63,655 nt of DNA from Acanthaster planci (GCF_001949145.1 NW_019091360.1:554137-617791), one strand, 5' to 3'. Positions 252 to 21,584 are shown, counted from the stretch's first letter. The notes: a model not told the origin generated them from the letters alone. Numbers and translations: made by a program.

Positions 252-3200
252 TTATTTCCACTCCCCAAAGCGCTGAGGTGGTCTTTGCCTTCGTGGAGGG
301 CGCCGTCTGGAGAGTACCTCCTCAAATGACAAGTCATTGTTCTCAGTGTCTGTACTGGAGCCAGGCTCTTCCAGCTGTAGTGTTACAGGACGTTTTCTTC
401 TAAGGAGTCTGGGTAGAGGTGGGTGCCTTCTGCTGTCATTAGTGTGACCACTTCCTTCCGACTCACTCTGACCTGGCAGTTCAGTTCTTGAGCTGTCACG
501 GGACTGACCATTCTCTGAACTGGCATCTGCAAAGGCTGGCTCTGCTGGCCTCAGCTGAGATTTAGCTTGCGACTCTTCAGAGTTTGAAGTTCCCGGTGCC
601 GATACTATGTCGAATGGGCAAAGCATGAGCATGTTGCGGTGAAGAGCCTATCCGTCGGACCACATAGACTGGGATGCCCTGCTGTTTCCTCACAACGATA
701 TAGGGGTCTGTTTCCCACCTGTCCTTCAGTTTGGCTTTCCCACGCTGAGACTTGTTAGCAACAAGGACCTTGTCACCAGCCTAAGACAGGAGGATGCAGT
801 CACTTGCCCGCTGATCATACGTGGCCTTCTGCTTCACCCTGGCTCTTTCAGCTGTTGTCTGGACTTCCCGGTAAACATCATGCATGTGCTGTCTGAGGCA
901 CTGGACATAGTGGGGGTAATCGGGGTCGGGCCTTTTCTCTGCCTCGTTGTCTTGTGTTGATGGGATGAGGATGTCTACGGGTAACTTGGGCCTCCATATG
1001 AACATCAGATAAAATGGGAAATACCCAGTAGACTCATGTTGGGTGCAGTTGTATGCATGGGTCAGGACGCCCACATGCATAGCCCAGTTGACCTTCTGCT
1101 CCAGATTGAGTGTCCCCAACATTGACATCAGCGTCCGGTTCCAACGTTCCGTCGTTCCATTCCCTAGAGGGGTGATATGGTTTGGTTCGGGGCCTCTTCA
1201 CCCCAAGCAGCTTACACAACTCCTTTATCACATCCGACTCAATGGACTTGCCCTGGTCAGAGTGCAGTCTCTCCAATCCCATAATTGACCACGAATTTCT
1301 CCCACAACACCTTGGCCACAGTCATCGCTTTTTCATCTTTGGTGGGGTATGCCTGGGCGTATCTGGAGTACTGATCGGTTATGACCAGAACATGTTCATT
1401 GCCACTCTTTGAGCTTTCTAGGCTCAAGAAGTCAATGCAGACTAGCTCTAGCGGGCGTGTAGTGCAGATACTTTCCAGTGTTGCCTGTTCTTTGGGTGTC
1501 TGGCGTCTTTCTGAGTGTGCACCGTCTGCACTTTTTGATGTAAGCATGGATGTCAGAATAGAGGCCAGGCCAGAAATACCTCTCCCTAGCTTGGTGTAGT
1601 GTCTTGTTGAGACCAAGATGCCCAATCGAGTCATGAAGGTGTCGTAGCACCTGTGATCGAAGGTCTACTGGTATGACAAGGAGGTACTGCCGGCCAGCTG
1701 CATCACCACCCGGACGATGAACAAGGAGCGTCTTACCTTCAATCGGTCCCAACTCCTCAGCAGCCAACGGACAGCCCTGGTTTCTTGTCCCAGTTGCCTT
1801 TTGCATGGTCTTCTTTCTCGTATACCCTTCAGGTATATAACCTTGGAGATGGCTTCATCTCTCAGCTGTGCTGAGAGGAGGTCAACACCCTGACCAAAGC
1901 TTGTACCTGGGATGAGGTTGTTGTAGGCAGTTGAAACTGATTCATCACCCGAAATACTGGGACCTTCTCCTGGCGACGTTACTTCTTGAGCGTGCACCTT
2001 TGCTGATACCTTCTCTCCCCCATTCTGTTCTTCACTTGCCAACTTATCCTCCGATCTGTCCATCCCCACTTCATTAGTACCAAGATGCAAGATACTTCAT
2101 CCCTGACAATTCGTGAGAGTGCATCTGCATTGCCATTGGTGTGACCAGGCCGGTAGATTATGTCCAACTTAAACTGAGACAAATCGCTAACCCATAGCTG
2201 ACCATGAGCATCCAGCTTGGCCGTCTTGAGAATGTAAGTGAGTGGCTTGTTGTCGGTGACTGCTGTGACATCTTGACCATAGAGGCAATCGTGGAACTTC
2301 ACCGTTATTGCCCAATGGAGAGCTCAGAACTCCAGCTTAAAGGCAGGATACTTGGCCTCTGACGGTGTAGGGGTGTGACTGGCGTATGCTATTGGCCGCT
2401 CTTGTCCATCTTGCACCTGTATAAGAACTGCCCTACACCCATCGGCCGAGGCATCTGTCTGGACAGTGAATGGGAGAGAATAGTTAGCATAGGCAAGGAC
2501 CGGGGTTGGAGTCATTTTCTGCTTCAGTAGTTCGAAAGCTTTCTGACACTCCTGACTCCAGGTGAATGGTGGATCCTTCGTTCCACGCCTGCCTCCTATC
2601 AGGTCAAAGTGGTCCCGCAATCGAGCATAATTGTGAATGAAATGCCGATAGTAGCCAGTGAACCCCAAGAAACTACGGACATCCTTCTTGGTCTTCGGCT
2701 TGGGCCAATCCACAACGGCAGACATCTTTTCAGGGTCGGTGGCAATACCATCTGCAGACACAACATGGCCAAGATAGCGAACTTGTGACTGGAAAAAATG
2801 GCATTTGGATGAGTTTAAGCTTCAAACCATGCTCACGCAGCCTCTCAAAAACCTTTGCAAGCCTCTCCCAGTGTTCATCTACAGTACTGCTGAATATGAT
2901 TATGTCATCAAGGTACAGAAGGAGCGAGTCGAAATTCATGTCCCCAAGGGCAACGGTCATCAGCCTTTGAAATGTTGCTAGGGCGTTTATCAGCCCAAAG
3001 GGCATTCTGGTAAACTCATACAGGCCCATGGGGGACGTGAAGGCCATCTTGGATAGATCCTTTTCAGCCACCTTGACTTGGAGGTACCTGGACGTCAGAT
3101 CCAGGCTCGTGAAGTATTTGGCTTTACCAAGGGCGTCTAAGGCATCTTCGACGCGAGGCAGTGGAAATGCATCCCACACTGTCTTGGCGTTCAGCTGGCG

Positions 3201-4132
3201 ATAATTGACACAGAGCCTGATTTTACCGTCCTTCTTTCATACGATTACAAGGGGGGGGTGTATAAGGGCTCTGACTCGGCTGTATCACTCCCGATATGCC
3301 TTCAGCTTATCTATATGCTGTCGGACTTCTTGGAATTGCCCTGGTGGGACCCTGCGGTATGGCAGCCTGAAGGGAATATTATCAATCGGGGTATTTCATG
3401 TTCTACCGTCTCAGTGTAGCCCAGGTCTTGATCATCTCAGAAAAAACATCCTTGTTTTTGGAGAGTAGCTGGAAAACCTGTTCTGCCTGCTTGTCTGTCA
3501 GGTTCTCATAGTTGACATCAATCTCTGGGACTTGGGGTTCCACCGTCGACTGGTTACATACAGCTGAGTGGGTGTTGCAGTTCGATTGGGTTTCTTTGTC
3601 TGCTTCAACTCTGCCAATTTCCTTGCCTACAGACAGGGTACCCAAGCAGGTATTTGGCCTCAAAATGAATTCACGTGGAGAGAGGTTGCATACTCAAACA
3701 GTGGTCATTCCCTTTTAACCTCCGAAAAAGTTCTACCAACGACCAGATTCTCCTCAAAGGTTGCATTGGCTGGCTCCACAAGTGTGTAGAAAGTCTTTCC
3801 ATGTGTTCATCTTGGGGCTTGTGTTGGCACATCTACCTCCGCACCGGGCTTTATCACCAACCTTCTCTTGCTGGCATACTTAAGTGGGCCAATTTCACCA
3901 TCCCTGTTTGCAAAGTCAGTCCCATCACTGTTGACACACTGGAAGGCATTAATCCAGGGGTCAGAACGTCGTCTGGTCCTGGCCATAAACCACCGGCCAT
4001 ATCTTTGATGCAGTCTATCACGTAAGGCCACGATGACATTGGTTCCCAAAAGAACAGGGGTGGATTGTCGAAAGTCTGTGGTAGGCACCACAAAGGCAGG
4101 CACATCACAGATTGTCTGACCCAAAACAACAA
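252..4132 (-). pseudogene. pol: Gypsy pol polyprotein, multiply frameshifted (protease region, reverse transcriptase, RNase H, integrase)
   Basis: RT: DAFPLPRVEDALD, LDLTS, RMPFGL, LLYLDDIII. RNase H: VQTDAS, PIAYAS, TDNKPL, YRPG..NGNADALSR. Integrase: HDSIGHLG/CRRC zinc motif, LVCIDF, LHSDQG, AYN..HESTGY.PF. These are split over many ORFs in different frames. Confidence 0.92.
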
Positions 4133-5524
4133 ANNNNNNNNNNNNNNNNNNNNNNNNNNNNNNNNNNNNNNNNNNNNNNNNNNNNNNNNNNNNNNNNNNN
4201 NNNNNNNNNNNNNNNNNNNNNNNNNNNNNNNNNNNNNNNNNNNNNNNNNNNNNNNNNNNNNNNNNNNNNNNNNNNNNNNNNNNNNNNNNNNNNNNNNNNN
4301 NNNNNNNNNNNNNNNNNNNNNNNNNNNNNNNNNNNNNNNNNNNNNNNNNNNNNNNNNNNNNNNNNNNNNNNNNNNNNNNNNNNNNNNNNNNNNNNNNNNN
4401 NNNNNNNNNNNNNNNNNNNNNNNNNNNNNNNNNNNNNNNNNNNNNNNNNNNNNNNNNNNNNNNNNNNNNNNNNNNNNNNNNNNNNNNNNNNNNNNNNNNN
4501 NNNNNNNNNNNNNNNNNNNNNNNNNNNNNNNNNNNNNNNNNNNNNNNNNNNNNNNNNNNNNNNNNNNNNNNNNNNNNNNNNNNNNNNNNNNNNNNNNNNN
4601 NNNNNNNNNNNNNNNNNNNNNNNNNNNNNNNNNNNNNNNNNNNNNNNNNNNNNNNNNNNNNNNNNNNNNNNNNNNNNNNNNNNNNNNNNNNNNNNNNNNN
4701 NNNNNNNNNNNNNNNNNNNNNNNNNNNNNNNNNNNNNNNNNNNNNNNNNNNNNNNNNNNNNNNNNNNNNNNNNNNNNNNNNNNNNNTCCTTATTCGGAAA
4801 AGATCTTTAGAAGTGAATGGAATCATCACATTGTCATTTGTCAAAAAACAGCTTTTGCATGTCCTGTGCAACCCATTTGATGGGCGACGCACGACGGGCG
4901 ACGCATGACGGCAGATATGGAATTCCATACTATAAACTACAGTGCAGACTGTGTGAGTCTAATCCTTTGTTCTGCACCACATGGTCTAAAGCTGAATTCC
5001 TTCACAGCTTTTACACATTAGAAATACAGTTAGTTAACTGTAACTGTTAGACCACTCTACATCTTAATTTAGTATCACAGTGCTAGGAATTCTAGTCAAG
5101 GAACACTTGTAAGAGCAGAGATAAATCTATTAATAGTATGGAGGATCATCTAATGGTGGGCTCTGAACATGACTTTCTTTATACAAGATTAAAAGAAAAT
5201 CACATTAGAATTACATTTTAGTCTGAATGACGAAGTAAAACTTCTAATGGTGTTTCCAAGACAAAACAAAGGGTGCGAAATGGAAGAAACTTACAGAAGA
5301 CTATGCCAAACAGCCGTGCTCCGTCACAACCTTCCCCGCATCAGAAACTTCAAAAGAACCTTTGCCAAAATTACAAACTAACTAGTTTGACACTAAAACT
5401 ACTGACTTACAATACAAATAGCAAATTACGGCAAACTCACCCCAGCTGCAACTGGTGACAAGAGCAGAAAAGTGCAAATGTGGGAAGGCTGAAGAGAGCT
5501 GTGAGTGGTAATGCTCACTCTTCA

Positions 5525-6135: not shown

Positions 6136-7952
6136 AAACAGACAACCTTTAACCTTTACATACAAAAGTTAACATTCAGATCTTTGGTCTTGAGCCACAC
6201 TGCAGATTAACAGGTGTATTCTCGGTAGATTTTCCTGCTGCAAGGTCTTCCTTCCGTAACAAGTTCCTGAACAAGGAACAAAAAGAGCCGATGATGTTGT
6301 ATGATTTAGCCCTGTCAATTTGGATGCTGAATATTTCAGTTTTTGTCTGGCCAATAGCAATGCTTTACCATGAATTACGTTTCAGTGTCAATACTGGGAC
6401 AACTAATTCAAAGTACTCTAGTTTGGAATTTTTTACAATATTTACAATTTATTTACCAAATTTAAGAGTTTTTTCTCCTCTAAAGTCTTTGTCTCAGATT
6501 ACTTCTTCCTAGACAAAAGTCCTTGTCTTACAAAGATGAAAAACTAAATGAATTCACTGTAAAAGAAAAATAAAAATTAAAAGAAAAAAAGATTATAAGG
6601 GCCTTTTCCCGTTCCCTTCTTGCCGTACAGGCTGAGTTCCAGAGTATGGTTGTTTCTTTCTTTAAGTTAAACGTTTTATCTTTGATCTCTGTTCTTTAAA
6701 GTTACATGTGCAAGATACAAAAGTTAACATTCTGATCTTTGGCCTTAAGTCACACTCCAGATTAACTGATGTATTCTCGGTAGATTTTCCTTCTGCAAGG
6801 GCTTCCTCCAGCCATTTGATGACTTGGGCCTACATCTGTGCCAGATGGTTTTCAGCGACTGCAGTCAACAAGTTTTTTCTATCTTTTGGACCTTGCGGAC
6901 ATCTAAATAATGTATAATAAAATTCAAACTTTCCAAAATATCTGTCTTGTGATCAATTTGATTACTAGAGCAACAGATACAGTAGATCATTATACTTTGG
7001 ATATATTCTCAAAATTGGCTCAATTGTTTAAAATCTGCTTGTTAGAGGAATGCATACGTTTGAAGACTTAGTGCATTTCAAACAATCTAAGGCTTGTTTC
7101 TCCTTAGAAATTTTGTACCAGGTAATTAGCTTGGGCTTGTAAACAAATTAAATCTTTTCGAAAAAGTTAAAACTTACGATTTTTCTTCAGGTGTTTCTTT
7201 CAGGTTGAGTCTTCCCTGCCACCAAACTCCCGACGAGTGTTAATGTAGTTTTGCCCAAAAGGTAAAACTTTGGCATGCCTGCCCTGACCACTTATGTCAA
7301 GCTTTTATCAGTTTAATGCATACGGCTCCAACACGAGATAATTGTGGTGTTTCTATCATATAGCCGGCACTTCGCCTGTGACAAAGCATTGCCATTGGCG
7401 AACCAAAAACAATTAAATAACAATTCGCTGTAACAGGAAAAAAAGGTCACGGGGCGTGCGCAAAAAAGCCAATCACAATGCAAAGCCATCAGCCCTTCCC
7501 GCAGCCCCAGCACCTTGGTGGGGGGCGCTGGGCGACGAGCGGAGGGTGCACTGCCTGCATCATTACAGCCTGATAAAATTGTAGCGCCGGCGGGTCCGGC
7601 CGGTGGGGGCGCCAGCTCGGACCCGCATGGAGTTGGCTGGCTGCCACGCTCGTTGCGTTGCGAACGGCCCGCTGTTTTCCCGCCTAGCGTCTGCGCAGTC
7701 CCTGCCGCCAGGCGCCATGTTGAGAGTAGAGCTTGTCGGAAGAGCACATTGCAGTGTACGCAATAGCAATAAAGCAGAGATTTTGTGACCAGAACAGTGA
7801 GTTGCACCTGAGTGTCGTTCTTCACAGCGTCGAACCCTGTTCAGCGGGACACGCTACATAATTTATCCTCGACTCCATGGGCTGCGAGCGCGTTCCTTCA
7901 CGAGCCCTGGCCGTATACGTAGGATTCGAAAATAACGCTGATTGGCTGTTCA

Positions 7953-8097
7953 AGTAGTTGAGAGCGGTACGCACAAGACCCACCCCACCTTCAATCATCG
8001 TCCCCCAGTTTAGCACAAAATACCAAAACTAAACCACGGCAAAATCGAAACCCTCCAAACCCCTGCGACCAACTTTTAAAAATTTTTATAAAGCCAT
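7953..8097 (+). repeat. Left terminal inverted repeat
   Basis: AGTAGTTGAGAGCGGTACGCAC...CCACCTTCAATCATCGTCCCC...AAAGCCAT is the reverse complement of 19170-19310, with scattered mismatches. Confidence 0.93.
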
Positions 8098-8152
8098 TCC
8101 ACCCTCGGTAATCCGAGAATATCTAAAACCATCTCGCTCTTATAAAACCCAC

Positions 8153-8246
8153 GTTTCGATTTTGCCGTGACTTAGTTTCTGATTACCGCGAAAAGGGACG
8201 ATGATTGAAGGTGGGGCGTGTCTATTGCGTAACGCTCTCAACTACT
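8153..8246 (-). repeat. Internal inverted copy of the terminal ~95 bp of the TIR
   Basis: GTTTCGATTTTGCCGTG...GGGACGATGATTGAAGGTGGGG...GCTCTCAACTACT is complementary to 7953-8051 and is a direct repeat of the element's right end. Confidence 0.88.
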
Positions 8247-8332
8247 AAGGTTACAAAAGAGACGATGCTTTTGGTCTGGAATTACCGAGTAAAAATGAGA
8301 CAAATCTATGCCAAAGCCGGAAAAATCAGAAC

Positions 8333-9082
8333 ATGTCAATCCAAGTATACATCGTTTCAGACGACCACGAGCATCTCAATGCCGACAACTGTGACCCCAA
8401 CGTCACCTATGGCCCTTTTGACCCGAGTAAATTAATCATTTCAAAACCCGTGATTAAAGAAGGCACCCATGTGAGTCAATGCAGTTCGCCCATTTTTACC
8501 ATCACAACGGCCAAAATAAATTGATTATGACGATAGAATCCTGTTACGGCATAAACCAGCTTTACAAATATGGCACTCGAGATAAAACGCCAGAAAATTT
8601 AGTGGGTCGGCAAATTTGCTATCAAATACAACAACCTACGACAAACATACTCGATCACATAAATTTGGCCGTTTATAGGTTTATCGAATCTCAAGAGTCT
8701 AATCTCCCGTCTAATATCGTAAACGCCTGCAAAGCCAGTCGTGATATCAATGAATTGAACAAGATCGAATATGAAGTTAAATCACCTTACACGGCTAAAA
8801 ACCAAATGTATGTTAAAAAAGATCCCTATGCCTCTCTATTTGATCACCAAAAAAAGACCCATCGACTCGTCAAATATCGATAAATTTATCAATAAGAGAT
8901 GCGACGCGCAATCATTTATTTGTCCAAAAGACATATACTACGGTACCCACGGTTTGTTGTCTTGCGGCGCCAGCGTTCGGTATAGAGTGACAGCAGCAAT
9001 GTTGAAAATTAGAAACGACGGACTAATTTCAAAGAATTCGGCGTTGCAAGCGTTTAGCATATCTGAATCTTCCGTGGAATAA
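8333..9082 (+). pseudogene. Candidate ssDNA-binding protein of large-DNA-virus type (DUF2738-like), two frameshifts
   Basis: ORFs 8333, 8479 and 8771 join into ~250 aa: FDPSKLIISKP...LIMTIESCYGI...LVGRQICY...IYYGTHG...GASVRYRV. From memory this resembles iridovirus-type DUF2738 proteins; not verified by search. Confidence 0.45.
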
Positions 9083-9142
9083 GAAGTCGATTCAATTACA
9101 AATGAATTGAATTTTAATTTCTTGTGTAATAAAAGTCGACTT

Positions 9143-9180
9143 AACCTCTGTTATTCTTCGGAATAACTGGGGTTGTTTTT
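9143..9180 (+). terminator. Stem-loop with a cTTCGg tetraloop and T-tract downstream of the first viral ORF
   Basis: AACCTCTGTTATTC-TTCG-GAATAACTGGGGTT followed by GTTTTT, in the intergenic gap. Confidence 0.45.
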
Positions 9181-9223
9181 ACGTCAGTCTTTCCTTAAAT
9201 AAATAAACAACATATAAATAACA

Positions 9224-9672
9224 ATGACATACGCAGAGATTTGCCACCTACTCGGTTACCAGAAAAAACGTGCGAACACGACATATTTGAAATAGGCGAA
9301 AGCTATGTATGCCGACATTGCGGTCTAATTTTTGAGTGGGTTCCTTCATACACCCCTGAAGAGATAGGATACAGATATTACTATCATCAAGTTTGGAAAA
9401 AACCCTCCACGAAAATCAGAGAAGATTTTGAGAGAAATAAACATTGAATTGCCCAGTGAACAATCGAGCATAGAATACGTGTTAAATCGAGTTTTAGATG
9501 GTAAGATATCTAGAGGTAGACCGTTGAAGGCTTTAATTGCGGTATGTTATCAAAAGGCAACCGGGGAGGACGATTTAAAAGTAAAGGATTTGTTTCAAGT
9601 TTCGGATAAGTATTGGAAAACGCCCTCGACAAATTAAACCTAGCCAAACAAGATTTTTCAAAACGTATATAA
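9224..9672 (+). pseudogene. TFIIB-like protein (Zn ribbon plus one cyclin-like repeat), frameshifted
   Basis: CEH-x9-VCRHCGL zinc ribbon followed by a helical region with ISRGRPLKALIAVCY (compare the TFIIB RGR...IAAACLY motif). Spread over ORFs 9241 and 9428. Confidence 0.65.
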
Positions 9673-9739
9673 TAGAATAGAGACTCACGCATTTTACTTG
9701 ACCAAAAGCGAGCAGGCGTTTATAAGGCAATAAATAAAT

Positions 9740-10243
9740 AAAAGTCAGAAAAGTAAGCTTTCTCCTCGGTTACTTTAACATTACAAAATCCACCGAAATC
9801 GAATGGCAAAGTCAAATGGAAGGAAGCCCCGCAAAAAGAGCTCCCGATGGAGTTAGACCAGCAATACAGGCTGACTCACTAATATGTTATTAACACGGAT
9901 ATTATAGAAGCACTTGAACTGATAGTACCGTTTTCAGATTTGCAGATGGATACTTTGGTTCTGTTTTACGACGTAATAAGAAACTACATTCGAGCTTACG
10001 AGGCGGGTACTTTAGAAGAATTCCGTGTCTCAATTAGTCAAAATAGGCCTTGAGAATCAAATCAGAACGTTAACAAATAAACGTCCGGGATCAGACAACA
10101 AGACAGAAAACGCGTTAATTTATTTAATACTTTTAACTCGAGGTCAAGTCGATACTTACAAAGAAGCTCGCCACATTGCTTTAGAATTTTTTCAAGAGCG
10201 ATTTTTAGGCGACGAAGGGGTTTTCCAACGTGGATTGGTTTGA
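9740..10243 (+). pseudogene. Unidentified viral ORF remnants
   Basis: Coding-like stretches (IIEALELIVPFSDLQMDTLVLFYDVIRNYIRAY; ORF 10025) between the TFIIB-like and penton-like genes. No motif recognised. Confidence 0.3.
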
Positions 10244-10887
10244 TTTTATCTTAACCGCCATTCCGGGTGTGAGTTTTAAAGTTCACGAAAAGTCAAATTT
10301 GGTAACGATAATGATAACTGATTCAAATCTCAGATTAAAGTTGGGTAAAGAGGTCGGCAAACTTTTAAATCTGCCAAGAGGTAGACTCGTGCCAAACGTG
10401 ATTTATAAGGGGAAGATAGATATAAATCCTTTTGACAAGCTTTGGATACACTGCCGAGAAATAAACGACAATTTTAACGACCTTAGTACGCGTTGTGTAC
10501 CGCGCCAGACTTGAGCAAAAGCGTTAAAGGGTGACTTTGTCTATTACCAACCACAGCCTTAAGTTGCGGCTAAATAAGCAACTGGCTAACTTATTAGATC
10601 TGCCAAAGGTTAAACGTTTACCCCTTGTCATTTATGAAGGCAAGTGTGATTTAAACCCCTAGAAATTTGTGTTTGTACATTGCGCCCAGTTGAATACCGG
10701 TATCAATTTTTATAACGGCAAATCTTCGGATATGTTGAGCGTTTTCGATGCCAATCATAAAGATAAAACGCCCAAAAGTTTAAGTGACAGAAACATCAGT
10801 GAATTGACCTTTTCTTTAAAAGACAAGGGAGGAGAACTAGTAGACAACAAAGGCGCTGAAATTTTAATCGGGCTAGACATTTTTTAA
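10200..10887 (+). pseudogene. Minor capsid protein (penton-like single jelly roll), disrupted
   Basis: FVHCAQL...NFYNGKSSDML...ISELTFSLKDKGGELVDNKGAEILIGLDIF* matches the typical C-terminal strands of Polinton/PLV minor capsid proteins. Confidence 0.65.
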
Positions 10888-10907
10888 AACGCGTATATAA
10901 TAAAAAG

Positions 10908-11562
10908 ATGACTACTAACATTTACCCAGATTTGACTTTAAACTCGGTCGAACAATCAGAAACCAAAGTCTACAGACTCAGAAAAATCGAAGAAATCAAA
11001 TCTCAAATCCAAAGAGAACGCGACGCGCGGGAAACTAGCTACAAGAAGATCAAACGGGTACTCACCGCACTCGGCTACGTGGAGTACGGGGTAGAAGTGC
11101 TGGGCGCGACCTCGGCAGCCGTCGGCGTTTCCGCAATTTTAGGCGTCGTGACCGGGCCTGTCGGACTTGTAATGGAAGGCATCGCTTTCGGTGCGTTTGG
11201 TGCCTACGCAGCGCTAAAGTACGCCACTCGCCGTTTAACTCACAAAACAAAAAAGCACGATCAAATCCGCGTACTTGCCGATGCTAAATTAAACACGATC
11301 GAGGAATACGTATCTCACGCAATTGAAGACGGTGACATATAGCAAGAGGAATTTGTGTTGATCTTATCTGAACTAAAAAAGATTAACGAAATGAAAGAAA
11401 AGATCAGATCGAGTACGTCTACAAAACTGCAAGCGAGCGAAGCGAGCTCGACGAATAAAGAAAAAGAAATTCAAATGTCAAGTAAACGAGAGAGCAGAAG
11501 CGCTAGCCAACGAACATGCGACGGTTTTTAAAAAAGATCTTATGAAAAAACTTGGCGAGTAA
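10908..11562 (+). pseudogene. Coiled-coil protein with a long Gly/Ala-rich hydrophobic hairpin (membrane-active candidate); in-frame stop at 11340
   Basis: YRLRKIEEIKSQIQRERDARE, then a ~55-aa hydrophobic segment (VLGATSAAVGVSAILGVVTGPVGLVMEGIAFGAFGAYAAL), then KKHDQIRVLADAKLNTI. The frame continues past the stop (QEEFVLILSEL). Confidence 0.6.
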
Positions 11563-11674
11563 GTTTAACCAAGTCGGTTAAGTACGAAGTGAGCAAAGCG
11601 AGCGAGCCACCTGCTTATCAAGCAACCCAACCAACGGTACCTCCTTTAAAATAAAATAAAGACGTTTAAAATAA

Positions 11675-12955
11675 ATGGGAGCCAACTTTAGTCATTTATC
11701 AATCGTAGTCGATAAGGACAACTCGCCGAGTTTCCAAATTTAATGCACGCGTATAAATTACCAAAAGTCACCACGGCAAAGCCGTCAACCGCTGGGTTAC
11801 CGATCCAATTTCGATTTAATTTTGCGGTCTATTGCGCGACGACGGCTTGTGGTGTGGGTTTTGATTTGCTGTCTGATCCCAATCCACACGTGTCGGCTTT
11901 ATTCAATTTTCACGTATATTATACCGTACAAAAATGCCCAATTCCGAGCGACAACGTATTTGACGCGTTACACAATTATTACGATCATCGGAAGTTTACA
12001 GACACTTGTCGTCTATTTAACGTCGATTCAAACAAGTTGTTTAAACAAACTCGTGACACTTTGTCAAACGGATTAGGCACTGCTTATTATTACGACAACG
12101 GTTACGTATCTGTCCCTAATAAAAATTATGATGCATACGACTTACACCTCTCCAACGGCAAATACGCGGGATCTACTTACATGGGCTTTGGCTGGGCTAA
12201 ACCACCTAAAGGCTTGGGTCATGCGAGTACTTACACGGTCAATTGGATTTCACAGTCGGACGCGGCCACTTTGGCCTGGTGGGATTTCATCCTAAAAAGA
12301 GTAGCTCGACGGACGTGGGGATCACCAAGGTAAACGAATCCATTAGGGCTTACGGATACGAGTTACACGGTGCACAAGCTCAAACCAAGACCAGCGTTTT
12401 GGACACCGGCACCGGATTAGACGCGCAACGGCAATTTATTACGATCGTGGAATCTTTAATTAATTCAGCCCCCGATCTCGAACAGTCGATATATCAATTT
12501 CAAGATTCGTTGCTATATGCCAAAATGCCTTTAGACTTTGTAGTCGCCCCGGGGTTATATTTGGTGCCCTCGGATATGGACTTACGCATCGGTACGTATG
12601 AAGGTTACAACAGTAATGTACAAATCACGACTGCGGATATGACGACTGGTTACGTACCGAATTTAAATTTAAGGCCAGGGGTTAAGATGATTTTGCGGGT
12701 GAAGCAAGCGAAGCGAGCAAACCAAAGCAACCAGAACTTTCACCCACTCAACCAAAGCAACCAGAACTTTTACCCACTCAACCAAAGCAACCAGAACGTT
12801 TACCCACTCAACCAAAGCAACCAGAACTTTTACCCACTCAACCAAAGCAACCGGTACCAGATAAAAAACCATTAGACATACATAACGAAGAGAAGTTATC
12901 TTTAATTATAGGAGCTATCACCATAGGTGTCCTCCTGTATAAAGTATTAACTTAG
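11675..12955 (+). pseudogene. Predicted myristoylated, C-terminally anchored viral protein with a Pro-rich repeat stalk; frameshifted
   Basis: Starts MGANFS (MGxxxS). Core has NFAVYCATTACGV, FHVYY, INESIR-like, GAQAQT, PSDMDLRIG. After a frameshift it reads (QPKQPELLPT)n and a terminal TM LSLIIGAITIGVLLY before TAG. Confidence 0.6.
12719..12853 (+). repeat. 30-bp coding tandem repeat, ~4.5 copies
   Basis: Unit AACCAAAGCAACCAGAACTTTTACCCACTC; encodes QPKQPELLPT in the frame that runs into the TM tail. Confidence 0.9.
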
Positions 12956-12985
12956 AATAGACGAAAAAGTAAAAGGCATTAAAAA

Positions 12986-13017
12986 AACGCTTGTTCTCCA
13001 CGTGGAAAACAAGCGTT
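12986..13017. terminator. Palindrome at the convergence of the plus- and minus-strand gene blocks
   Basis: AACGCTTGTTCTCCACGTGGAAAACAAGCGTT, one mismatch, lying between stops at 12955 (+) and ~13034 (-). Confidence 0.5.
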
Positions 13018-13033
13018 GAAATTTTTTTGCCTA

Positions 13034-13473
13034 TTATAAAACGGGTTTACGTTTTTCGTATAAAAGGCAAACTACATAACCGACCACTAAAAATAAAGTC
13101 CACAGGTGATCCGCTATCCATCCAACCGCTTTACTCACCACGTTAAATATCCAACTCAAAACGCCACCGATGATTCCAGGCAATTCAAATAAAAAATATT
13201 TGGGTCTTTAATTTCTGTTTCGTAATCAGTTTCGTTGTACCGCTTTTCGATCTCTAAACCACCATATATTTCTTCTTCTTCGTTTGTCCCAACGGTAATA
13301 GGATGTGCAAAATCAGGGTCTTCTAACAACGACGTTTCATTTTGGTCAGTACAGGACGTTTCTGTTTAGGTCGGATTAAGTATTAAGTCTTCCCAAGCCA
13401 ATTTCAAGTCTTGATCGGTTTCTTCTTTGTTCTCTAGTGGTATTTCCCAAAAATCAAATCCTCCTTCGGCCAT
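13034..13473 (-). pseudogene. Viral protein with acidic N-terminus and C-terminal amphipathic/TM helices, disrupted
   Basis: MAEGGFDFWEIPLENKEETD... then LPGIIGGVLSWIFNVVSKAVGWIADHLWTLFLVVGYVVCLL. Confidence 0.55.
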
Positions 13474-13521
13474 TTTACTTTAACTTTAAAATAAACGATT
13501 AAAAAACCAACTTTACGGTTT

Positions 13522-13766
13522 TTAAGTGGTTGGTAGACTCGGGGAAAATATCCCTTGTGACACGAGCCTACCCTGGGTAGCTAACGCACCGCTAGACAGG
13601 GCGGTCAATTGTAACGCGTCTTCGATTGCAAATTTATTGAAATCTGGCGGTTTGATTTGAGCTTACTCGACAACATCGCGTAACCCATACAAAATCCTTA
13701 AAGTACAGCACCGTGATAAACCGTATTGGCGATTCCATTTAGGTCGATTGATTTAGTGTTACTCAT
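13522..13766 (-). pseudogene. Small hydrophobic viral protein, frameshifted
   Basis: MSNTKSIDLNGIANTVYHGAV ... IKPPDFNKFAIEDALQLTALSSGALATQGRLVSQGIF; preceded by TTAAAAATG. Confidence 0.45.
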
Positions 13767-13790
13767 TTTTAATATATAGTATCTTTAAAT

Positions 13791-14164
13791 TTATTCCATA
13801 TCTAAAACTTCAGGTGTTTGTTTTTTTGGTTGAACAGTTTGTAAAGGTGTTGCTTGAACTTTTATAGGCGTCGATTTATTTTTCCACATTAAATATAACG
13901 CGACTGCACCAATCGCTAAACCGCCCAGGATTAAATTTCTATTTTCGGTGACCGTTTCCTAAATTTTATTTCCAGAGCTAGCTTCGCTCACTTTTAATTT
14001 CGCGAGTTGCTGCTTCATCTTTCTGTTATGCTTGGCTAGTTTCTTACCCTGTTCTATGCGTTTTGGATTTTTAACTTTAGTTACTGTTGCACCTGTGTCT
14101 TTACCGGGCTGTTCGTCGGCGTTGATGCTGGGATTGCTTTGCTCGCTTCTTCTGTTGTCGACAT
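13791..14164 (-). pseudogene. Basic coiled-coil protein with one TM helix, one in-frame stop
   Basis: KNPKRIEQGKKLAKHNRKMK followed by LILGGLAIGAVALYLMW. Confidence 0.55.
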
Positions 14165-14199
14165 CTTTTATAATAGAAACGTTTTATTTATCGATAGAT

Positions 14200-14643
14200 G
14201 CTTAGTTGTAATTGGCGTGGCTACCAAGGGCGATAAATAGACCCCGTATTTATAGCAAATCTCGCTTAGGAAATGACTCATTGTTTGACTTATAATCGGA
14301 TCGTTATTTAGATTTTTTGTCAAATCTTCTTCGGAATTCAAATTGATATTAAACCCGAGGAGTTCGACTGGAGTGGCAATGCCTAGTAAACGTGCGTATA
14401 AGCTTAGAATCGCATGGCCAAGTGTATTTACAATTTCTCTGCCGAAGTGTGCTTCATACAGGTTAAAAGCTTTTCTTGATCTTTTGGAGTTAGGGCTTCA
14501 ATTTCTTTTACAGAATATTCTTTACTCAGGCATTTTTTAGATTCCCAAGATGCCACTATTGAGCACAAGCGATCTCTTACATTGGGTTTATTTTCGGTCG
14601 ATTCTGTTTTTGGCTCGTTGAGAATTGATTTAAAATCTTCCAT
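14200..14643 (-). pseudogene. Helical viral protein of unknown function, frameshifted
   Basis: ORF 14428-14643 continues in another frame as YEAHFGREIVNTLGHAILSLY...DLTKNLNNDPII...ICYKYGVYL. Confidence 0.5.
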
Positions 14644-14866
14644 TTAAATATATGGTTTTTAAAATTGTTGAACGTATGTTTACAGTATAAATATTTAAAC
14701 CTGTAATAAGTTAGATTAGCTGCGATAACTAGTTGGATAACTAATTGAACTAATTGTAACATTGCTTCTATTTAATTATAACAAAAATAAATAAAAACAG
14801 CTATAGCCAGACTGTAACAACAAAGCTATAGCAAATGAAACAAATAAATAACTAGTTAACATTAGC

Positions 14867-15520
14867 TTATACGTCTGTTGACTCGGGTATCATATTGCAC
14901 TTACGCATTAGGTTACACCTACAGCAAGCCAACACGCAATTCCATTTCACGTGCCCAAAACCCGTGGGTAATCTTTCGATCGTTGCCTGGTCTTGTCTTG
15001 GCTCGATATATTACAGTTTTACGTTGCAGTCGTTGTAATAACAAAACTCATGAGCGTCAACCATTTCTCGGGGATGAATAAGTTATATTTCTTATCACAT
15101 TGTTTAGAAGTATACAACCAACGATCAAAAACAAATTTTGCTGCGATATCTTTGCTTTTTATGAGGGCAAACGCCTGAACCGTTACACTGAACACAATAA
15201 TATCTTTGCTTACCGTGAATACACATCCCAGCACCATTACACTGAACACAATAATATCTTTGCTTACCGTGAATACATATCCCAAAACCATTACAATCAA
15301 CACAAAAATATCTTTGCTTACCGTGGATACATATCCCAGAACCATTACATTCGACGCGTGCATTTTTTAGTTTACCATGAATGCATTTACGCCGATTATT
15401 AGAAATTTTTGCTGCGGCGTTATAACTGATACATCCAGCGCAGATTTTACCACTGTCTGTAACTTTGAACGAATCCAATCCATTTAATTTATGGCAGCGA
15501 TTACACGTTTTATTCTCCAT
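14867..15520 (-). pseudogene. Cys/His repeat protein fused to an HNH (His-Me finger) endonuclease domain, frameshifted
   Basis: Four to five 18-aa repeats CIHGKQRYYCVQCNGxGI (54-bp tandem at ~15140-15390). After a frameshift: CYYNDCNVKL...ATIERL..GFGHVKWNCVLACCRCNLMRK. Confidence 0.7.
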
Positions 15521-15555
15521 TTAAATTAATATTACATTAATGCATTTTATCATTT

Positions 15556-16185
15556 TTACCGAATGACATAATTCACCGGCGGCTCAGTATAAAAAAAATC
15601 AATTTACTGAACTTCACGTCTCGAAATGCTTTTTAATTTCTTCCCTTTTTTCATCAGGTACGACATCGTTTTCGGTTAAACACTGGTCAAAGCTGTTACG
15701 ATCTTTCCAATGAAACAAAGCGGTCCACGCCGTATTTTCGCGGTAGTCTTTGAGAACCAAATTATATATCTGAGTTAATAGCCAACAACTATGATTATAA
15801 TGACGCCCTAAAAACGCCATCTTACTTAATGCGCATACATTGCTCCCTTTAGATCTTTTAAGATACTTAATAATTTGATCTGAAGCACAGTCGTCGATAA
15901 TAAATAACGTATTTACACCGTCAAATTATTTTTGATAAGGTTCAATCGCTTTGTTTCATTATAGTCGTTCCCGATCTAAATCGCATGGAAAAACGTCGTC
16001 GTCTGTGTAAATCCATAGTCAGTCCAAATAAGTTTTATTTTAGACAACATGGGACAAATAATTACGATAGCTTCAAATGTGAACCTATATTCGGTTTCTA
16101 GAAGATCTAATATCCAATTAGTTTTCCCGCTGCCCGTCTTACCGATGATTAAAGCGCAGTGTGGCTTCTTGTACATCTGGTTCAT
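15556..16185 (-). pseudogene. A32-like (FtsK-HerA superfamily) genome-packaging ATPase, disrupted
   Basis: Walker A LIIGKTGSGKT, Walker B LFIIDD (~15890-15910), arginine-finger motif GRH and LLTQ. Confidence 0.88.
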
Positions 16186-16199
16186 TTAATTTAAACGCT

Positions 16200-17454
16200 T
16201 CTTAATAAACCCGTAGACTTTAAAATTTCCGTCTTCTACAGTCAATTGAGCTAAAAATAAAAATAAAAAAAATACGTACATCATCAACGGACCCGCGGTC
16301 TCTGCTTCGCGTTCCATCTGTATCAAAATACCTCCTCCGCCCCGAGCGGCCTACCCGAGCCATGAGCAGATTTATCGTCAGAGCTCCTGAAATCGAGCCA
16401 CAGACCATACTTATCTTTTAGACATTCGGCCATATCAACCCCCGTTAAATTTAGATCTTTTGCAACTGCGCGAGCCGATTTGGTGTCCGAGTCGCCGAGG
16501 TATTTGTTGACTTCGTTCCAGTGTTGGTATTCAAATAGCCCTTGTGAGTAGAGCTGGATGGGTTTGCCTTCGACCGTGACGACCGTTTTAGTTATATTTC
16601 GTTGCAGATTTTTGACCGCGGGATCTTTGAACAAAATCAAAACGCCTTTCAAACTCTTGATCGTTTGGTCGATGCTGATGTTCCATAACGTGTCTGACTT
16701 ATTAACCGCCTGTTTTTTCCAAGAATGAATTCTGTTAAATAAGTAATAGACGGGGCCTCTATGTTTGGCCTGCAGGGCCTGCGCCAAATCTCGATTGGTG
16801 ACGACTTCATATTCTAAAGTCAAATCCGAAATTGAGTACTCCGCAGCCTTGTCTGACGAGTTAACCATTTGATTGTGCCCGTTAAACGTTAACTGGTACG
16901 TCAGAGGCTCTTTAAAATCCGACGGATCGAAAGGCCCATTATCCGTATCTAAAGGAATCGCATATCGATTTTTAAAAGTGTCGGCGATCGCCTTATCTTT
17001 ACCGTTGTTCGCGGCTTCGTTTTTATCGCCCGCGTTCAAACGTAACTTAGTGACGTTTTCTCTTTCTTAACTAAAATAAGCCATATTTTTCGTCTACGAC
17101 AGAGGTAGCCAATTGCCCTTAAAGTTATGAAACACGTCCGCGTCTCGGTAACTGACAATTTTATTGCCTTGTAAGCTTACATTGATTTCTGAAAGCAGGT
17201 TTCGCGCTACGTTGTTATACACGGTACGGTTATCGTCGGATGCACCGTCTAGATCGAGTTGAAAGCCAGTTTCGCGGTACCCGGCATGATGACGTCATCC
17301 ATGCCTAAAGCGGGGAATTTTATGTTTAACGTGTGACCCACAGCTATGGTGCTCGGTTATGGGTGACAGTTACTTCGCGTCTTTTGCCCTTAATCACGCG
17401 AGGTACTTTGAGCCTGCGACTCAGGTTTATTTTTTTCGTGTATTGTTGCGACAA
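16200..17454 (-). pseudogene. Major capsid protein (double jelly roll, Polinton-like virus type), disrupted
   Basis: ~410 codons adjacent to the ATPase. Beta-rich motifs: VTVTHNP.TI, IKFP.L..DDVIMPGTAKLAF, RYAIPLD, YSISDLTLEYE, SLKGVLILF, VTVEGKP.QLYSQG, YGLWLDFRS...HGSGR. Fold assignment rests on size, context and recalled similarity. Confidence 0.75.
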
Positions 17455-17483
17455 ATTTCTTAATATGTACGATTTATGTTTTA

Positions 17484-17633
17484 CGTAAAAATTTTAAAGA
17501 GAAAAGAAAACGCAATAAAGGGTATGCTGGCTGCGAAAAATAGATCTTCATTATTTTGCTATCTAAACGTTTCACTCTGGTGAACGTGACCGGCTTGAAT
17601 TTCTACCAGTTGATTTTTAATTTCGGTATTCAT
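17484..17633 (-). pseudogene. Tiny ORF remnant with a C-terminal hydrophobic segment
   Basis: MNTEIKNQLVEIQ...LFFAASIPFIAFSFLF; divergent from the ORF at 17658 across a 24-bp pure A/T spacer. Confidence 0.3.
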
Positions 17634-17657
17634 ATTTTTAAATTATATATTTTAAAA

Positions 17658-18084
17658 ATGGCTAGTATTGCAATGATGGTTGGAGGAGCTAAAGTAAACG
17701 CCCTGGCATTTACGGGCTAGATTTTTTTATTTGGCAGTTTATCAAAAAGTAAAGTCGACGAAGAATGAAAGCGTCAAGATCCTGGCGATAGAGCAATTGG
17801 TGCAGGCAAAACAAGAGTGGGAGCAAAACCGCGTTCATATGTTAGATTTTTTAAACGAGCAAATGCGACAAGAACGCACGAGTCAGCAAACATTTGTAAA
17901 CGTGGACGAAGCGTTACGAGCTTAGAGCGAATTAACCGGTAAAAAAAAATAATGCCGCTGCCGCCAGAGCCTAAAATACTCGATTTTTACGCACCTTCGA
18001 TCCGAGGATCAAAAAATTCGCAAATTTATATGGATTATATCCGGGACGGCTTTAGTCGGTTTCTTATCTTATCGATTTGCGTAA
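17658..18084 (+). pseudogene. Viral protein with N-terminal hydrophobic helix, coiled coil and C-terminal TM; disrupted
   Basis: MASIAMMVGGAKVNALAFTG ... LAIEQLVQAKQEWEQNR ... PPEPKILDFY ... IWIISGTALVGFLSYRFA*. Confidence 0.55.
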
Positions 18085-18096
18085 CTTTATTTTAAA

Positions 18097-19110
18097 ATGG
18101 AGCGAGAATTTTCAAAATTATTTTACAGCTCACAGGGTTATTGGCGGGGTGAAAGTTCGGTCGATCATCTACACGTAAAGACGGGTGCAGGCAAATCAGT
18201 TATTAGAAACTGGCTAAAAAAGCAAGCCGTTTGGCAAATATATTTACCCGCACCTGCGTACGTACCGCGACCAATGACTTTGCAATCGGAATCGGTCGAA
18301 CCTAATTATGCGCATCAAATAGATATATTATATTTACCCTGGGATTATGTTGAAAGAAAAACGTTTAAACACGCTTAGACCGTGGTAGACGTAGGTTCGC
18401 GATATAAAGAGGCAGAACCGTTGACCAGCAAAACCGCCGAGCAAATGTCTGAAGCCGTGAAACAGATTTATAAAAGATTGCCCTTCACTTGGCGCAAAAT
18501 TATAATGGTAGACTCTTGATCTTTATTTAAAGGTGAGTTTAAAAAATTAATGACGAAAAATATAGAGTAGAAATTCAAGTGGGTGAGCCGGGCGTTCATA
18601 GGTCGTAGGGAATCGTGGAAAGGTTTAACCGTACTTTGGCTGAAAGGTTATTCGGTCATTAATACGCTCAAGAAATGTTAAATGTGGATGAGCGAAACGT
18701 AGAATGGGTAGAACGTTTGCCTCAAGTTGTAAAATCGTTAAACGACGAAAAAACGCGTTCAATCGACAAAGAGCCCGCAAAAGCTATCAAATTAGACCGA
18801 GTGAAGCAAACACCTAGTGCACCTCCCAGAGTTGGCAAGCGAGAATTACCGCCAAGCGTGGTCGTTCGGTACCTCTGTTACGTACCCGGGTGAGCAAGAG
18901 GGTGGAACCGTCAGAAGAGTGACCGATCCAATTTGGTCCGTGGACGTTTATCAAATTGAAAAACGCACGAAGCAATTTAAACGAGTAAATGGCAGGCGGA
19001 TAAAAACGGGTCCTACTTTATATTATTTATTAAACGGGCCAAATAGAAGTTTCGTCAAAGAGGAACTTCAAGTCGAACCCGAGGATACAGAATTACCGCC
19101 CGAGTCTTAA
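18097..19110 (+). pseudogene. Retroviral-like (rve, DDE) integrase of Polinton type, with stops and frameshifts
   Basis: HQIDILYL (D), TVVDVGSRY, IMVDS..FKGEF (D), GIVERFNRTL (E), W...LP.VV..LN, and C-terminal PIWSVDVY / YYL / RSFVKEELQ. Confidence 0.92.
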
Positions 19111-19169
19111 CTGCGCAAAAACCGAATTGAGGACTTTTTCTTTGTCTTAAAAAATTGAGTTGTTCACCC

Positions 19170-19310
19170 ATGGCTTTAAAAAATTTTTAAAAGTGGGTCG
19201 CAGGGGTTTGGAGTGTTTCGATTTTCCGGTTTAGTTTTGGTATTTTGTGCTAAACTTGGGGACGATGATTGAAGGTGGGGTGGGTCTAGTGCGTACCGCT
19301 CTGAACTACT
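19170..19310 (-). repeat. Right terminal inverted repeat
   Basis: Reverse complement of 7953-8097; ends GAACTACT and is followed by GTTCA. Confidence 0.93.
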
Positions 19311-21584
19311 GTTCAGGGGGCGTTTTCGAAACCCCAGTCTCCCGGGACTCACGAACAGTGTTCTTGGGTCGTTGATTACGAATGCTTAAGTGCAAATGGG
19401 GTGCAGCTGCGTTGAAAGTCAAGATAGCAGTCGCCATTTTAACACTAAATGAAAAGATGGCATGACATTTACCATCCCACATTAAATAAAATTCCTAAAT
19501 GTCCATATTAATGGTCAGGGTAAATTTTCTCCGACAGCCATGAGTATTTGCCTTGGGTTCAAGTTTATTTTTCTTTGTGAGTGTTTCCTATTTTATCTAA
19601 CAAAACCACCATTAACTTACGGTATGTGCCTATATCCACCATCTTTGTTCTTGATGTTCTTCATCCACTCCCCAGAAAGTGGGGAGTGAGAATCAAAGAT
19701 CTCATAGCGCTGTACAATCTTTGGTGAGAATCTTGTTCAGGAACAATGTTCGCGTGTTGATCCCCTTTTGAAACCCCGTTCTTGTGTTCGTCAAACACAA
19801 GAATGGCGTAAATCTGCGTCGCTCGAGCTCGTTAAAACGCTGACTAAAGTCCTTATTTATTATCCACCCCGAGCTGAAGTGCACCCCCAATCGGCGAAAG
19901 TAGGACAGGTGGTTATAAGCGGGTTCTTGCACGCGTTCTGCACGTACGCAGAGACCATACATGCCGAAATAAATTAGTTACGCGTACTCATCGTGCTCCG
20001 CATCAAACTCGCATATACTTCCGCGCCTGATGTCGCGCCTTACCAAAATCACGCCCTCTTTTGTTCCCCTCGGAGCAGGTGCAATATGGGGGGGGGGTGC
20101 GTTCCATCAAATGGTTGTATTGCTGCGCGCGAGCTCCTAATATTTTTTGATCCCACGGTGTTTTACAATAAGACATGCCATAACCAGGAGGCATCATAGA
20201 AATATTTCTATGAATCACGAATTTTGGACTGACAGATTCCAGTTGGAGGTATTTCTTTCGCCAAAAGCCCCAAATAGCAGGCCTATTTTGGATAGAGGCG
20301 GGCGGCTACATTTAGAAATGAGCGCTTAGTTTTATGCTGTTTGGGGTATCTTCCTTGAAAGGCGAATAAAAAAGATTTTCGTGGCTAAGCCCAATAAAAT
20401 TGAAACGAAGAGTGATCTTCTGGCCATAATCTTGAATTTCCAGTAAAAAAAAAACGGAGGCAAATTTCTTCACGAGAGTCACCAAGCGACGCTATTTTGG
20501 TCCGATTTGGCACTGGCGCGTATTTGGTTTAATGCACCTGGGCCGTTTTCCAATACTCAATCCGTCTCAGTCGCAGGCTTCGTTCCCAAAACCAATTCCC
20601 CATTGTGGGCCTGAAGCGTTTAAATTACATTGAATTGCTGTAATTTTTGGCTCTCTTTCATCTTAGTTGATGCTTTGTGGCACTATTAGACTAATAACTG
20701 AGCTTACAGCTTTAAAGTCATCTAGTAAAAAACAGTTGAAGCCGGAGCCGAAAGTGAATATTGGAAGACGACCCTGGGGTTAATCGCGCAAGGCATGGTA
20801 GGAACAAACATGGCGTGCCGAGATCATTCCCATGGAAACGAGGTTGGGCTAGGGTTTTTTTTACCGTGGGGACGAGGTTTTTCAAGGATACCATTGATTT
20901 CCCTATTAAAATATATGGGCTTGTTTCTGCACACCAGTTAAATCAGTGATACTGACTTGTACCCAGAGACAATCTGCCGTCAATGGGCCGTCTCTTACGC
21001 GCGTGTGAACAGCAAGTACAAACTCTGGGAACGCGTACGATCAATACATGGATGTTTCACACATGCAAAGTACATGTACATGTAGTACAATAGTCCTGGG
21101 CAAGTTACTAGGCCAGGAGTAAAGTGACCCCGTGACGTTTTGCGAATCATCGCGGCACGAAAGTGGTGAACTACCATGTAGACCGACGTTACCGACATGT
21201 GTCCTTAAAGTGTTGTAACTTTCTTCAACAAGGCTATTCAAAATCAAGTGTAAGAAATGCTGATTAATCATACCTAGTTTTGATGGAGGCAAAATGAAAC
21301 TTTGGCCATGAGTTTGTTGGTTGTATTCTTAAGGCTTTAGTTTACGCTACCATATCCATGGTATGTGGGCCGGCTTTTTAACTAACGTAGTACTGGCATG
21401 ACTGGGTCATGCTAATCATGCTAATCGTCAACGAGCGTAAACAAAGCGTTAACAAATTATTCAAGCATTTGTGTGAAGAAATGTGGTATTTTTTAATATG
21501 ATGAGGCTCCTGAATATCCTATTCAATATATCACATTTATCTCAAGTAATGTTTGAATGTGGAAAGTAAGCCGACAAAGTAGGT

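Follow-up and report, generated by a model that had tools for sequence, protein, structure and literature searches.

Organisation of the element

The window, by which we mean the whole stretch of DNA analysed (63,655 nt from Acanthaster planci), holds an inserted element of 11,358 bp (11.36 kb) at positions 7953-19310. Its ends are terminal inverted repeats (TIRs), and it is flanked by a 5-bp target duplication, GTTCA, which becomes 6 bp only when the last T of the element is counted in. The features that matter for the following are, with coordinates, strand and basis:

7948-7952, no strand: target-site duplication GTTCA, left copy (same pentamer at 19311-19315)
7953-8097, plus strand: left TIR, 145 bp (blastn against 19310-19170, 93.1% over 145 columns)
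8052-8152, no strand: loop of the fold-back, 101 nt, of which 8052-8097 is still TIR
8153-8246, minus strand: inner inverted copy of the terminal 99 bp, ending in AACTACT at 8246 (repeat search, blastn)
8247-8332, plus strand: junction and non-coding leader, low-copy and lineage-specific (depth profile, contigs over 8160-8280)
8405-9025, plus strand: first gene beside the left end, broken into three frame segments (tblastn of a 236-aa homologue, P0027)
15629-16164, minus strand: A32-type DNA-packaging ATPase gene, split over two frames (Pfam PF04665, tblastn)
16222-17451, minus strand: putative gene for the major capsid protein, in four frame segments and interrupted by an in-frame stop (homologues and tblastn)
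18097-19071, plus strand: rve-type integrase gene, three frame segments with stops (tblastn of homologues)
19170-19310, minus strand: right TIR, without an inner copy (blastn and local-alignment scan)
19311-19315, no strand: target-site duplication GTTCA, right copy (sequence)

The two TIRs differ at 10 of 145 positions and were presumably identical at insertion; over the successive blocks of the fold-back described below their identity is 50/52, 22/23 and 20/27. The right boundary is crossed by a contig of a public sequencing run (X2, 19102-19365) with no differing letters and one gap. Each of two terminal motifs is present exactly three times in the 63.7-kb window, where 0.01 and 0.00 occurrences would be expected, and no second copy of the element family was found elsewhere in the 63,655 nt. 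The terminus begins with a doubled AGT. The 22-nt core of the TIR has no exact match in IMG/VR, and a JGI metagenome contig (L001) with one match to a 19-nt TIR core was set aside as a chance hit, being GC-rich and giving no blastn match to the window.

The capsid-like frame has 25 homologues, mostly of 434-460 aa and about 40% identical (E down to 7e-49), which sit mostly on large contigs of other assemblies. Two homologues fused to an ATPase give a weak Capsid_N match that falls below the cut-off (E = 0.0025-0.0041), and in the Atlas one capsid homologue is placed near viral clusters, some with double jelly-roll capsid domains, which serves as a lead only. The AlphaFold model of a homologue is too poor to judge the fold (pLDDT 44.8). 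No relative of the protein was found in IMG/VR, and neither the capsid profile nor any of four other frames returned anything meaningful in PDB sequence searches. Judged from its relatives, 16222-17451 is a probable capsid gene. The frame lies upstream of the ATPase gene and adjoins it; for the ATPase, the Pfam match to PF04665 at 15976-16185 on the minus strand is above the cut-off (E = 3.5e-05) and homologues score E = 4.7e-10.

The integrase is recognised through eight homologues (E down to 1.1e-29), five of which contain PF00665, while its own read-through translation matches Pfam rve below the cut-off, at E = 0.0049, the gene being broken. Integrases about 30% identical to it occur on four IMG/VR contigs (L002-L005); self-comparison of the available part of each contig found no terminal fold-backs, which carries little weight given the remote relation. 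The first gene is an orphan with two relatives only in 1.84 billion representative proteins, none of them among longer proteins, and it belongs to no Pfam family. Two further genes without an assigned function lie at 9199-10887 and 11716-12875.

No polymerase, primase, helicase or protease was recognised in read-through translations of all six relevant frames with Pfam and PHROGs, and the element contains no open frame long enough for a polymerase. Pfam gave no Rep or HUH nickase in the read-through frames, and penton and protease genes were not identified. From this gene content we classify the element as a decayed Polinton-like endogenous virus with an integrase and a morphogenetic module and without a recognisable replicase; with no pPolB among its recognised genes, it falls outside the Polintons as strictly defined. 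The first gene, the capsid-like gene, the ATPase gene and the integrase gene are all frame-broken, and the copy at 7953-19310 is dead and inactive now.

Some further properties of the interior and of the surroundings may be recorded here. At a likeness of at least 90%, positions 14104-15879 have near single-copy depth, and neighbouring stretches run to thousands. A cysteine-rich frame at 15125-15520 (minus strand) consists of 54-bp tandem repeats encoding an 18-residue Cys/His-rich unit; it has no Pfam family and its best PDB sequence match is at E = 0.43. Five tandem 30-bp repeats lie at 12690-12869, and one of their frames encodes a proline/glutamine-rich 10-residue unit followed by a hydrophobic segment. 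The element sits in repeat-rich DNA: the flanks at 7444-7887 and 19876-20300 are very high-copy repeats with a summed depth of up to ~100,000 in run X1, and contigs join 7901 to 20053. The minus strand at 2324-3236 encodes reverse transcriptase and RNase H domains of an LTR-type retrotransposon (RVT_1, E = 6e-25; RT_RNaseH_2, E = 1.6e-23). The window includes ~1,020 N, and its GC content is 0.155 at 4001-5000. A 1,215-aa open frame at 36808-40455 (plus strand) has no Pfam family; in the Atlas it lies closest to clusters of long disordered exons from animal proteins, with scores of at most 0.86, a weak pointer to an animal host.

An inverted copy of the terminus inside the left end

The first-pass annotation had described a third, inverted terminus inside the left TIR, and blastn bears this out: 7953-8051, the first 99 bp of the left TIR and the outer arm of the fold-back, aligns with 8246-8153 at 79.8% identity over 99 columns. 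The inner copy ends in the exact terminal AACTACT at 8246 and is followed by AAGG instead of the target duplication, both as previously read from the sequence. The right end has no equivalent, as had also been claimed, since scanning the element from end to end with the 145-bp TIR by local alignment gave three copies only; the next-best score was 32, compared to a maximum of 29 for shuffled sequence. By this arrangement the genes are, as annotated, bracketed by two direct copies of the right end, 8195-8246 and 19259-19310, which are 90% identical.

The same annotation had proposed an imperfect stem of ~95 bp with a loop of ~100 nt. A strong fold is indeed predicted: as single-stranded DNA, 7953-8246 reaches -78.7 kcal/mol compared to -24.4 +/- 3.3 for 200 shuffles (z = -16.5). 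However, the stem is not evenly imperfect but made of two helices around a bubble. The outer helix pairs 7953-8004 with 8195-8246 (52 nt, 90% complementarity) and the inner helix pairs 8026-8051 with 8153-8178 (26 nt, 92% complementarity), and between them lies an unpaired internal bubble of 23 x 18 nt. The 14 terminal bases are identical on both arms and paired in the predicted fold. Within the loop lie a palindrome rich in AT (8071-8091) and a small hairpin (8104-8118).

The inner copy is a mosaic, with an identity to the outer arm of 47/52, then 8/23 and then 22/24. A 16-nt patch (8179-8194) has been replaced, with conserved blocks on either side. Differences specific to the inner copy crowd into the middle 23 columns, which hold 15 of them, compared to 4 in the 52 columns before and 2 in the 24 after, a clustering that even decay would not produce. 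In the two conserved blocks the arms differ at 7 of 76 positions, similar to the divergence of the left and right TIRs (10/145). Positions 8255-8270 of the leader form a further partial copy of the TIR core motif (88% identical to 8191-8206), so that three core copies lie at the left end and one at the right end; by a rough estimate, the chance of such a 16-mer within 400 bp is ~0.02.

Two simpler descriptions of the sequence were rejected. The whole 294 bp is not a decayed perfect palindrome, because identity within the loop is close to the random level and its small hairpin does not sit in the middle, and selection for G-T wobble pairs does not fit an outer helix in which one of five mismatches is a transition. 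Searches for Rfam families and, with ARAGORN, for tRNAs found none, and a bacterial-type promoter and terminator scan of 7900-8400 gave nothing.

The fold-back in independent runs and its parallel change

Sequence of 7700-8700 is present in 18 public runs from six studies, and 7880-8420 was compared with contigs of four runs from four studies (X1, X5, X13 and X15), one of which may be the source of the assembly. All run data are short-read contigs, from which rare forms are dropped. In X1, X5 and X15, zero-mismatch contigs cover 7880-8005, 8022-8210 or 8076-8210, and 8188-8332 or 8188-8371; in X13, one such contig (8074-8372) leads from the loop through the inner arm into the junction. A run of a fifth study (X11) has a contig over 8022-8210 with one difference. 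The gap at 8006-8021 is bridged by no zero-mismatch contig among the matches listed; stretches lacking contig cover were counted neither for nor against any reading.

Outer arm, loop and inner arm are joined in one piece by diverged contigs with 18-30 differences (X13, 7983-8216 and 7976-8174; X5, 7972-8216 and 8029-8224; X1, 8029-8189; X15, 7953-8174 and 8022-8179). Two variant haplotypes with 11-16 differences span the inner terminus and the junction (~8160-8280); one is present in all four runs, the other in X1, X13 and X15 with zero depth at 8227-8249 in X5, where a sister copy polymorphic for insertion or a break in the contigs of that run may account for its absence. In each run 3-5 contigs stop exactly at 7953 with unlike flanks, and the X15 contig 7953-8174 has 308 nt of different flank before 7953. 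Other copies thus retain the inner terminus, as the first-pass annotation had wished to see checked: at least two other loci share terminus and junction. Tiling in four studies, together with diverged contigs from elsewhere, speaks against a feature private to this locus or produced by misassembly. On this contig evidence, we regard the fold-back of the left end as genuine and as inherited within a small lineage.

The architecture is not invariant. A joint from 8174 to 8262 in the X15 contig with the 308-nt different flank represents one paralogue without 8175-8261, most of the inner arm, and a joint from 8051 to 8159, seen once per run, a copy with both arms and a different loop or none. The number of loci that demonstrably have loop and junction is ~3-5, and the left end is much rarer than the interior genes in the run contigs. 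Summed depth in 8241-8297 and in the loop is few-fold that of single-copy contigs, whereas from 8336 onward it is hundreds of times higher. The fold-back may thus be limited to a single small lineage of dead copies. In each of the four runs, depth is higher on the outer-arm core than on the inner arm, by a factor of 1.7-2.0; this is a weak hint of the ratio expected from two TIRs and one inner arm per element, as summed depths are not copy numbers. As a separate observation, 8336-8411 at the start of the first gene has a summed depth of ~28,000 in X1 compared to ~80 just upstream, and may be a separate short gene-derived repeat or the best-conserved stretch of a family with very many members.

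The variant copies allow the two arms to be compared between lineages. In one variant haplotype 8 of the 20 terminal positions differ from the inner terminus studied here. The corresponding outer terminus is seen as loose ends before 7976 and is carried by the X13 contig 7976-8174 through the loop into the inner arm; its sequence is the majority of 2-3 contigs, and its link to the variant inner terminus rests on overlapping contigs instead of a single one. By manual count, variant inner and variant outer terminus agree at 18/20 positions, and each of them agrees with the outer terminus studied here at 13/20, while the two arms of the studied element agree at 19/20. Six of the 20 terminal positions thus differ between the lineages identically on both arms. 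The sequence past the inner terminus is homologous in both lineages, which points to a single origin of the fold-back architecture. Neutral drift is disfavoured, because a neutral inner copy should keep the ancestral state in at least one lineage. The parallel change suggests, as far as these alignments go, that the inner copy was of consequence to the element. The likeness of the arms could also stem from gene conversion between the closely spaced inverted repeats.

The inner helix behaves differently. Most contigs over the inner arm have other letters at 8156 and 8158, and matching changes at the pairing partners 8048 and 8046 were not found among the matches listed, so that pairing of the inner helix does not look strictly kept across the family.

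Possible roles of the inner terminus

We propose, tentatively and with somewhat less than even confidence, that the left end carries an inherited cis-acting terminal palindrome, likely a fold-back whose arms paired for priming or end maintenance. We infer that descent alone does not explain the lasting likeness of inner and outer copy, that a function maintained it, and that this function was intrastrand pairing; the fold-back likely once helped to copy or to recognise the left end. If the left end became single-stranded, the 3' end of the bottom strand would pair with the inner arm and would prime synthesis from 8247 to the right, through the genome, in the manner of a parvovirus 3' hairpin. 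Alternatively, the inner arm would be the template for restoring a damaged tip. The stem base at 8246/8247 has genome-end sequence and might, purely conjecturally, be nicked by an end-recognising enzyme, and the copying enzyme could be that of the host, of a helper virus or of a sister element. A primer works only with its tip base-paired, so the terminal nucleotides would be under the strongest selection; such a requirement would explain both the 14 identical terminal bases and the parallel change in the terminal 20-mer. The absence of a recognisable replicase fits hairpin priming, and the parallel changes on both arms in the sister lineage appear to lend some support to a hairpin origin, one of the readings offered by the first-pass annotation.

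However, several features count against pairing. Only one end folds, and its stem has the unpaired patch of 23 x 18 nt. Most family copies seem to be unpaired at 8156 and 8158 of the inner helix. Only ~3-5 loci share loop and junction, and one paralogue has lost 8175-8261.

A model for such priming is found in the parvoviruses, whose imperfect terminal palindrome lets the 3' end fold to a paired primer; their two ends may differ (heterotelomeric), the hairpins are resolved by a nick at the stem base, and bubbles in the stem are tolerated. The element resembles them in its imperfect terminal palindrome and in a predicted fold with a paired 3' end, at one end only. Unlike a parvovirus, it has no recognised Rep or HUH nickase, no flip-flop forms were seen in the contigs, and it is a capsid-ATPase-integrase element of the Polinton-like kind whose right end is a plain TIR. 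The lack of a recognised Rep sets it apart from parvovirus-type replicons. That a Polinton-like virus without protein priming replicated from a single parvovirus-like hairpin, with the inner arm setting the tip and an end enzyme nicking the inner terminus, is in our estimate unlikely; if true, it would place a rolling-hairpin replicon inside Preplasmiviricota.

In adenovirus, a panhandle or embedded inverted terminus lets the displaced strand pair with itself and restore an end, a system that needs a protein-primed polymerase and a terminal protein. The element shares the internal inverted terminus and the doubled terminal triplet, but encodes no recognised protein-primed polymerase or terminal protein. 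A doubled terminal triplet is typical of protein-primed ends such as those of adenovirus; by analogy, the doubled AGT may point to replication in trans by the polymerase of a sister element, for which a hairpin would not be needed.

Endogenous virophages of Halocafeteria seosinensis and one subtype of Polinton-like viruses (PLVs) carry palindromes inside their TIRs beside the target duplications, preferentially, according to a 2026 preprint, in elements without pPolB and with particular RVE integrases; hairpin priming was proposed for them by the authors as a model only (10.64898/2026.07.28.741278). As described there, these are likewise integrated small DNA viruses with TIRs, target duplications, RVE integrases and a palindrome at the terminus, and the combination of an RVE integrase with no pPolB is matched by the element studied here. 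Their palindromes are short (52 nt in a figure legend), lie within the TIR and occur at both ends, whereas the fold-back described here measures 294 bp, has a 101-nt loop and a bubble, reaches beyond the TIR and is found at the left end only. The host differs and we found no sequence relation. The idea that a terminal palindrome helps to copy or recognise the end has so far been raised only for some protist viruses, and a one-sided inner copy of the terminus in such elements was not found described in the papers searched.

The element resembles Polintons/Mavericks and PLVs in its TIRs of at least 100 bp, an rve integrase, an A32 ATPase adjoining a probable capsid gene and the ability to reach many copies per genome. 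PLVs combine the ATPase with a double jelly-roll major capsid protein. The duplication of Polintons is 6 bp, compared to the 5 bp read here; for rve-bearing PLVs, target duplications of 5-6 bp are reported (PMC12220804). It differs in the lack of a recognised pPolB, protease or replicase, in its size of 11.4 kb and in the extra inverted terminus of its left end. PLV replication genes are reported to tend to sit beside the repeats (PMC11296320); the gene beside the fold-back here is an orphan.

Against a terminal palindrome kept for pairing, the inner copy might be a functionless relic of an old rearrangement, such as the solo right end of a nested sister element or a snap-back copying error, which was carried along by transposition while gene conversion kept the arms alike. 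This seems doubtful to us. In its favour, only a handful of loci demonstrably share loop and junction, the studied copy is dead, one paralogue deleted most of the inner arm (8174 to 8262), and the low-copy leader at 8247-8332 looks like lineage-specific filler. A relic would not readily account for the parallel change of 6/20 terminal positions between lineages with the same junction, nor for differences that are gathered in one patch instead of scattered. Conversion tracts between repeats of 50-100 bp are, moreover, expected to be rare and would tend to erase the mismatched patch.

Rather unlikely, in our view, is a role of the inner copy as second recognition site for the integrase or an end-binding protein, which would build an asymmetric complex at the left end with no pairing of DNA. 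The two conserved blocks (47/52 and 22/24) around a replaced spacer resemble two protein sites, and the extra partial TIR core at 8255-8270 could be a further one, although it is a single 16-mer with the rough chance expectation of ~0.02 within 400 bp. The parallel change of the 20-mer would be explained equally well by co-evolution with a protein and by pairing, and unpaired 8156 and 8158 in most copies would be harmless. Sub-terminal sites build asymmetric end complexes in many DNA transposons, and the P element, Ac/Ds, En/Spm, Tn7 and Mu have asymmetric ends with several copies of end motifs, some of them inverted. However, such sub-terminal sites usually lack the cleaved terminal nucleotides, whereas here the whole terminus is repeated: the inner copy has the exact terminal heptamer and is a whole end, not just an internal binding core. 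Retroviral-type integrases, in addition, are not known to bind beyond the terminal ~20 bp of a DNA end, which counts against a second site.

The first-pass annotation had also considered an alternative end that gives rise to a 294-bp MITE, an invertible loop and circle junctions. As a left end followed by an inverted right-type end, 7953-8246 has complete inverted termini and, like MITEs and foldback elements, could form a mini-element, so that its geometry would permit the inner terminus to act as alternative right end of a 294-bp unit moved or excised by the integrase; recombination between the 90% direct repeats 8195-8246 and 19259-19310 could leave the same unit. We consider this improbable. 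GTTCA precedes the segment and AAGGT follows it, which leaves it without a target duplication of its own. No loose end at 8246 was seen among the 24 of 188 matches listed, which is weak evidence from short-read contigs, and 56-82% of the summed depth on the inner terminus continues across 8246/8247 into the shared junction, so that free 294-bp units are few at best. Joints from 8246 or 7953 to 19310, or from 8246 to 19311, did not appear among the 15 of 218 listed for 7000-20300, and neither did empty-site joints, an absence of little if any weight, and none of the three joints on 7880-8420 changes strand as a flip-flop of the loop would, equally weak evidence from germline short-read contigs. 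If the integrase acts on linear DNA ends, as we assume, an internal site would be no substrate. A MITE that had inserted beside the element was rejected as well, as there is no duplication around 7953-8246 and the paralogues share the junction.

An assembly artefact or one-off local rearrangement is hardly credible: the absence of a zero-mismatch contig over 8006-8021 among the matches listed would suit it, but zero-mismatch contigs of four runs from four studies tile the rest, with X13 reading from loop to junction (8074-8372), and diverged contigs from other loci hold outer arm, loop and inner arm in one piece.

The terminal palindrome is our preferred reading. The fold-back is known from few dead copies, and we infer its function from what looks like a sign of constraint in the sequence. 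If the reading is true, it would provide a concrete cis element: 294 bp, two delimited arms and, at 8246/8247, a candidate site for a nick. The one-sided architecture differs from the short palindromes published for both ends, and the parallel change of the arms adds a first item of comparative evidence. If the reading fails, the case still shows that a complete extra end can persist inside such elements over many integration rounds, which would inform what the integrase accepts as substrate. The finding bears on how polymerase-less Polinton-like viruses copy their linear genomes and how integrated copies yield new ones.
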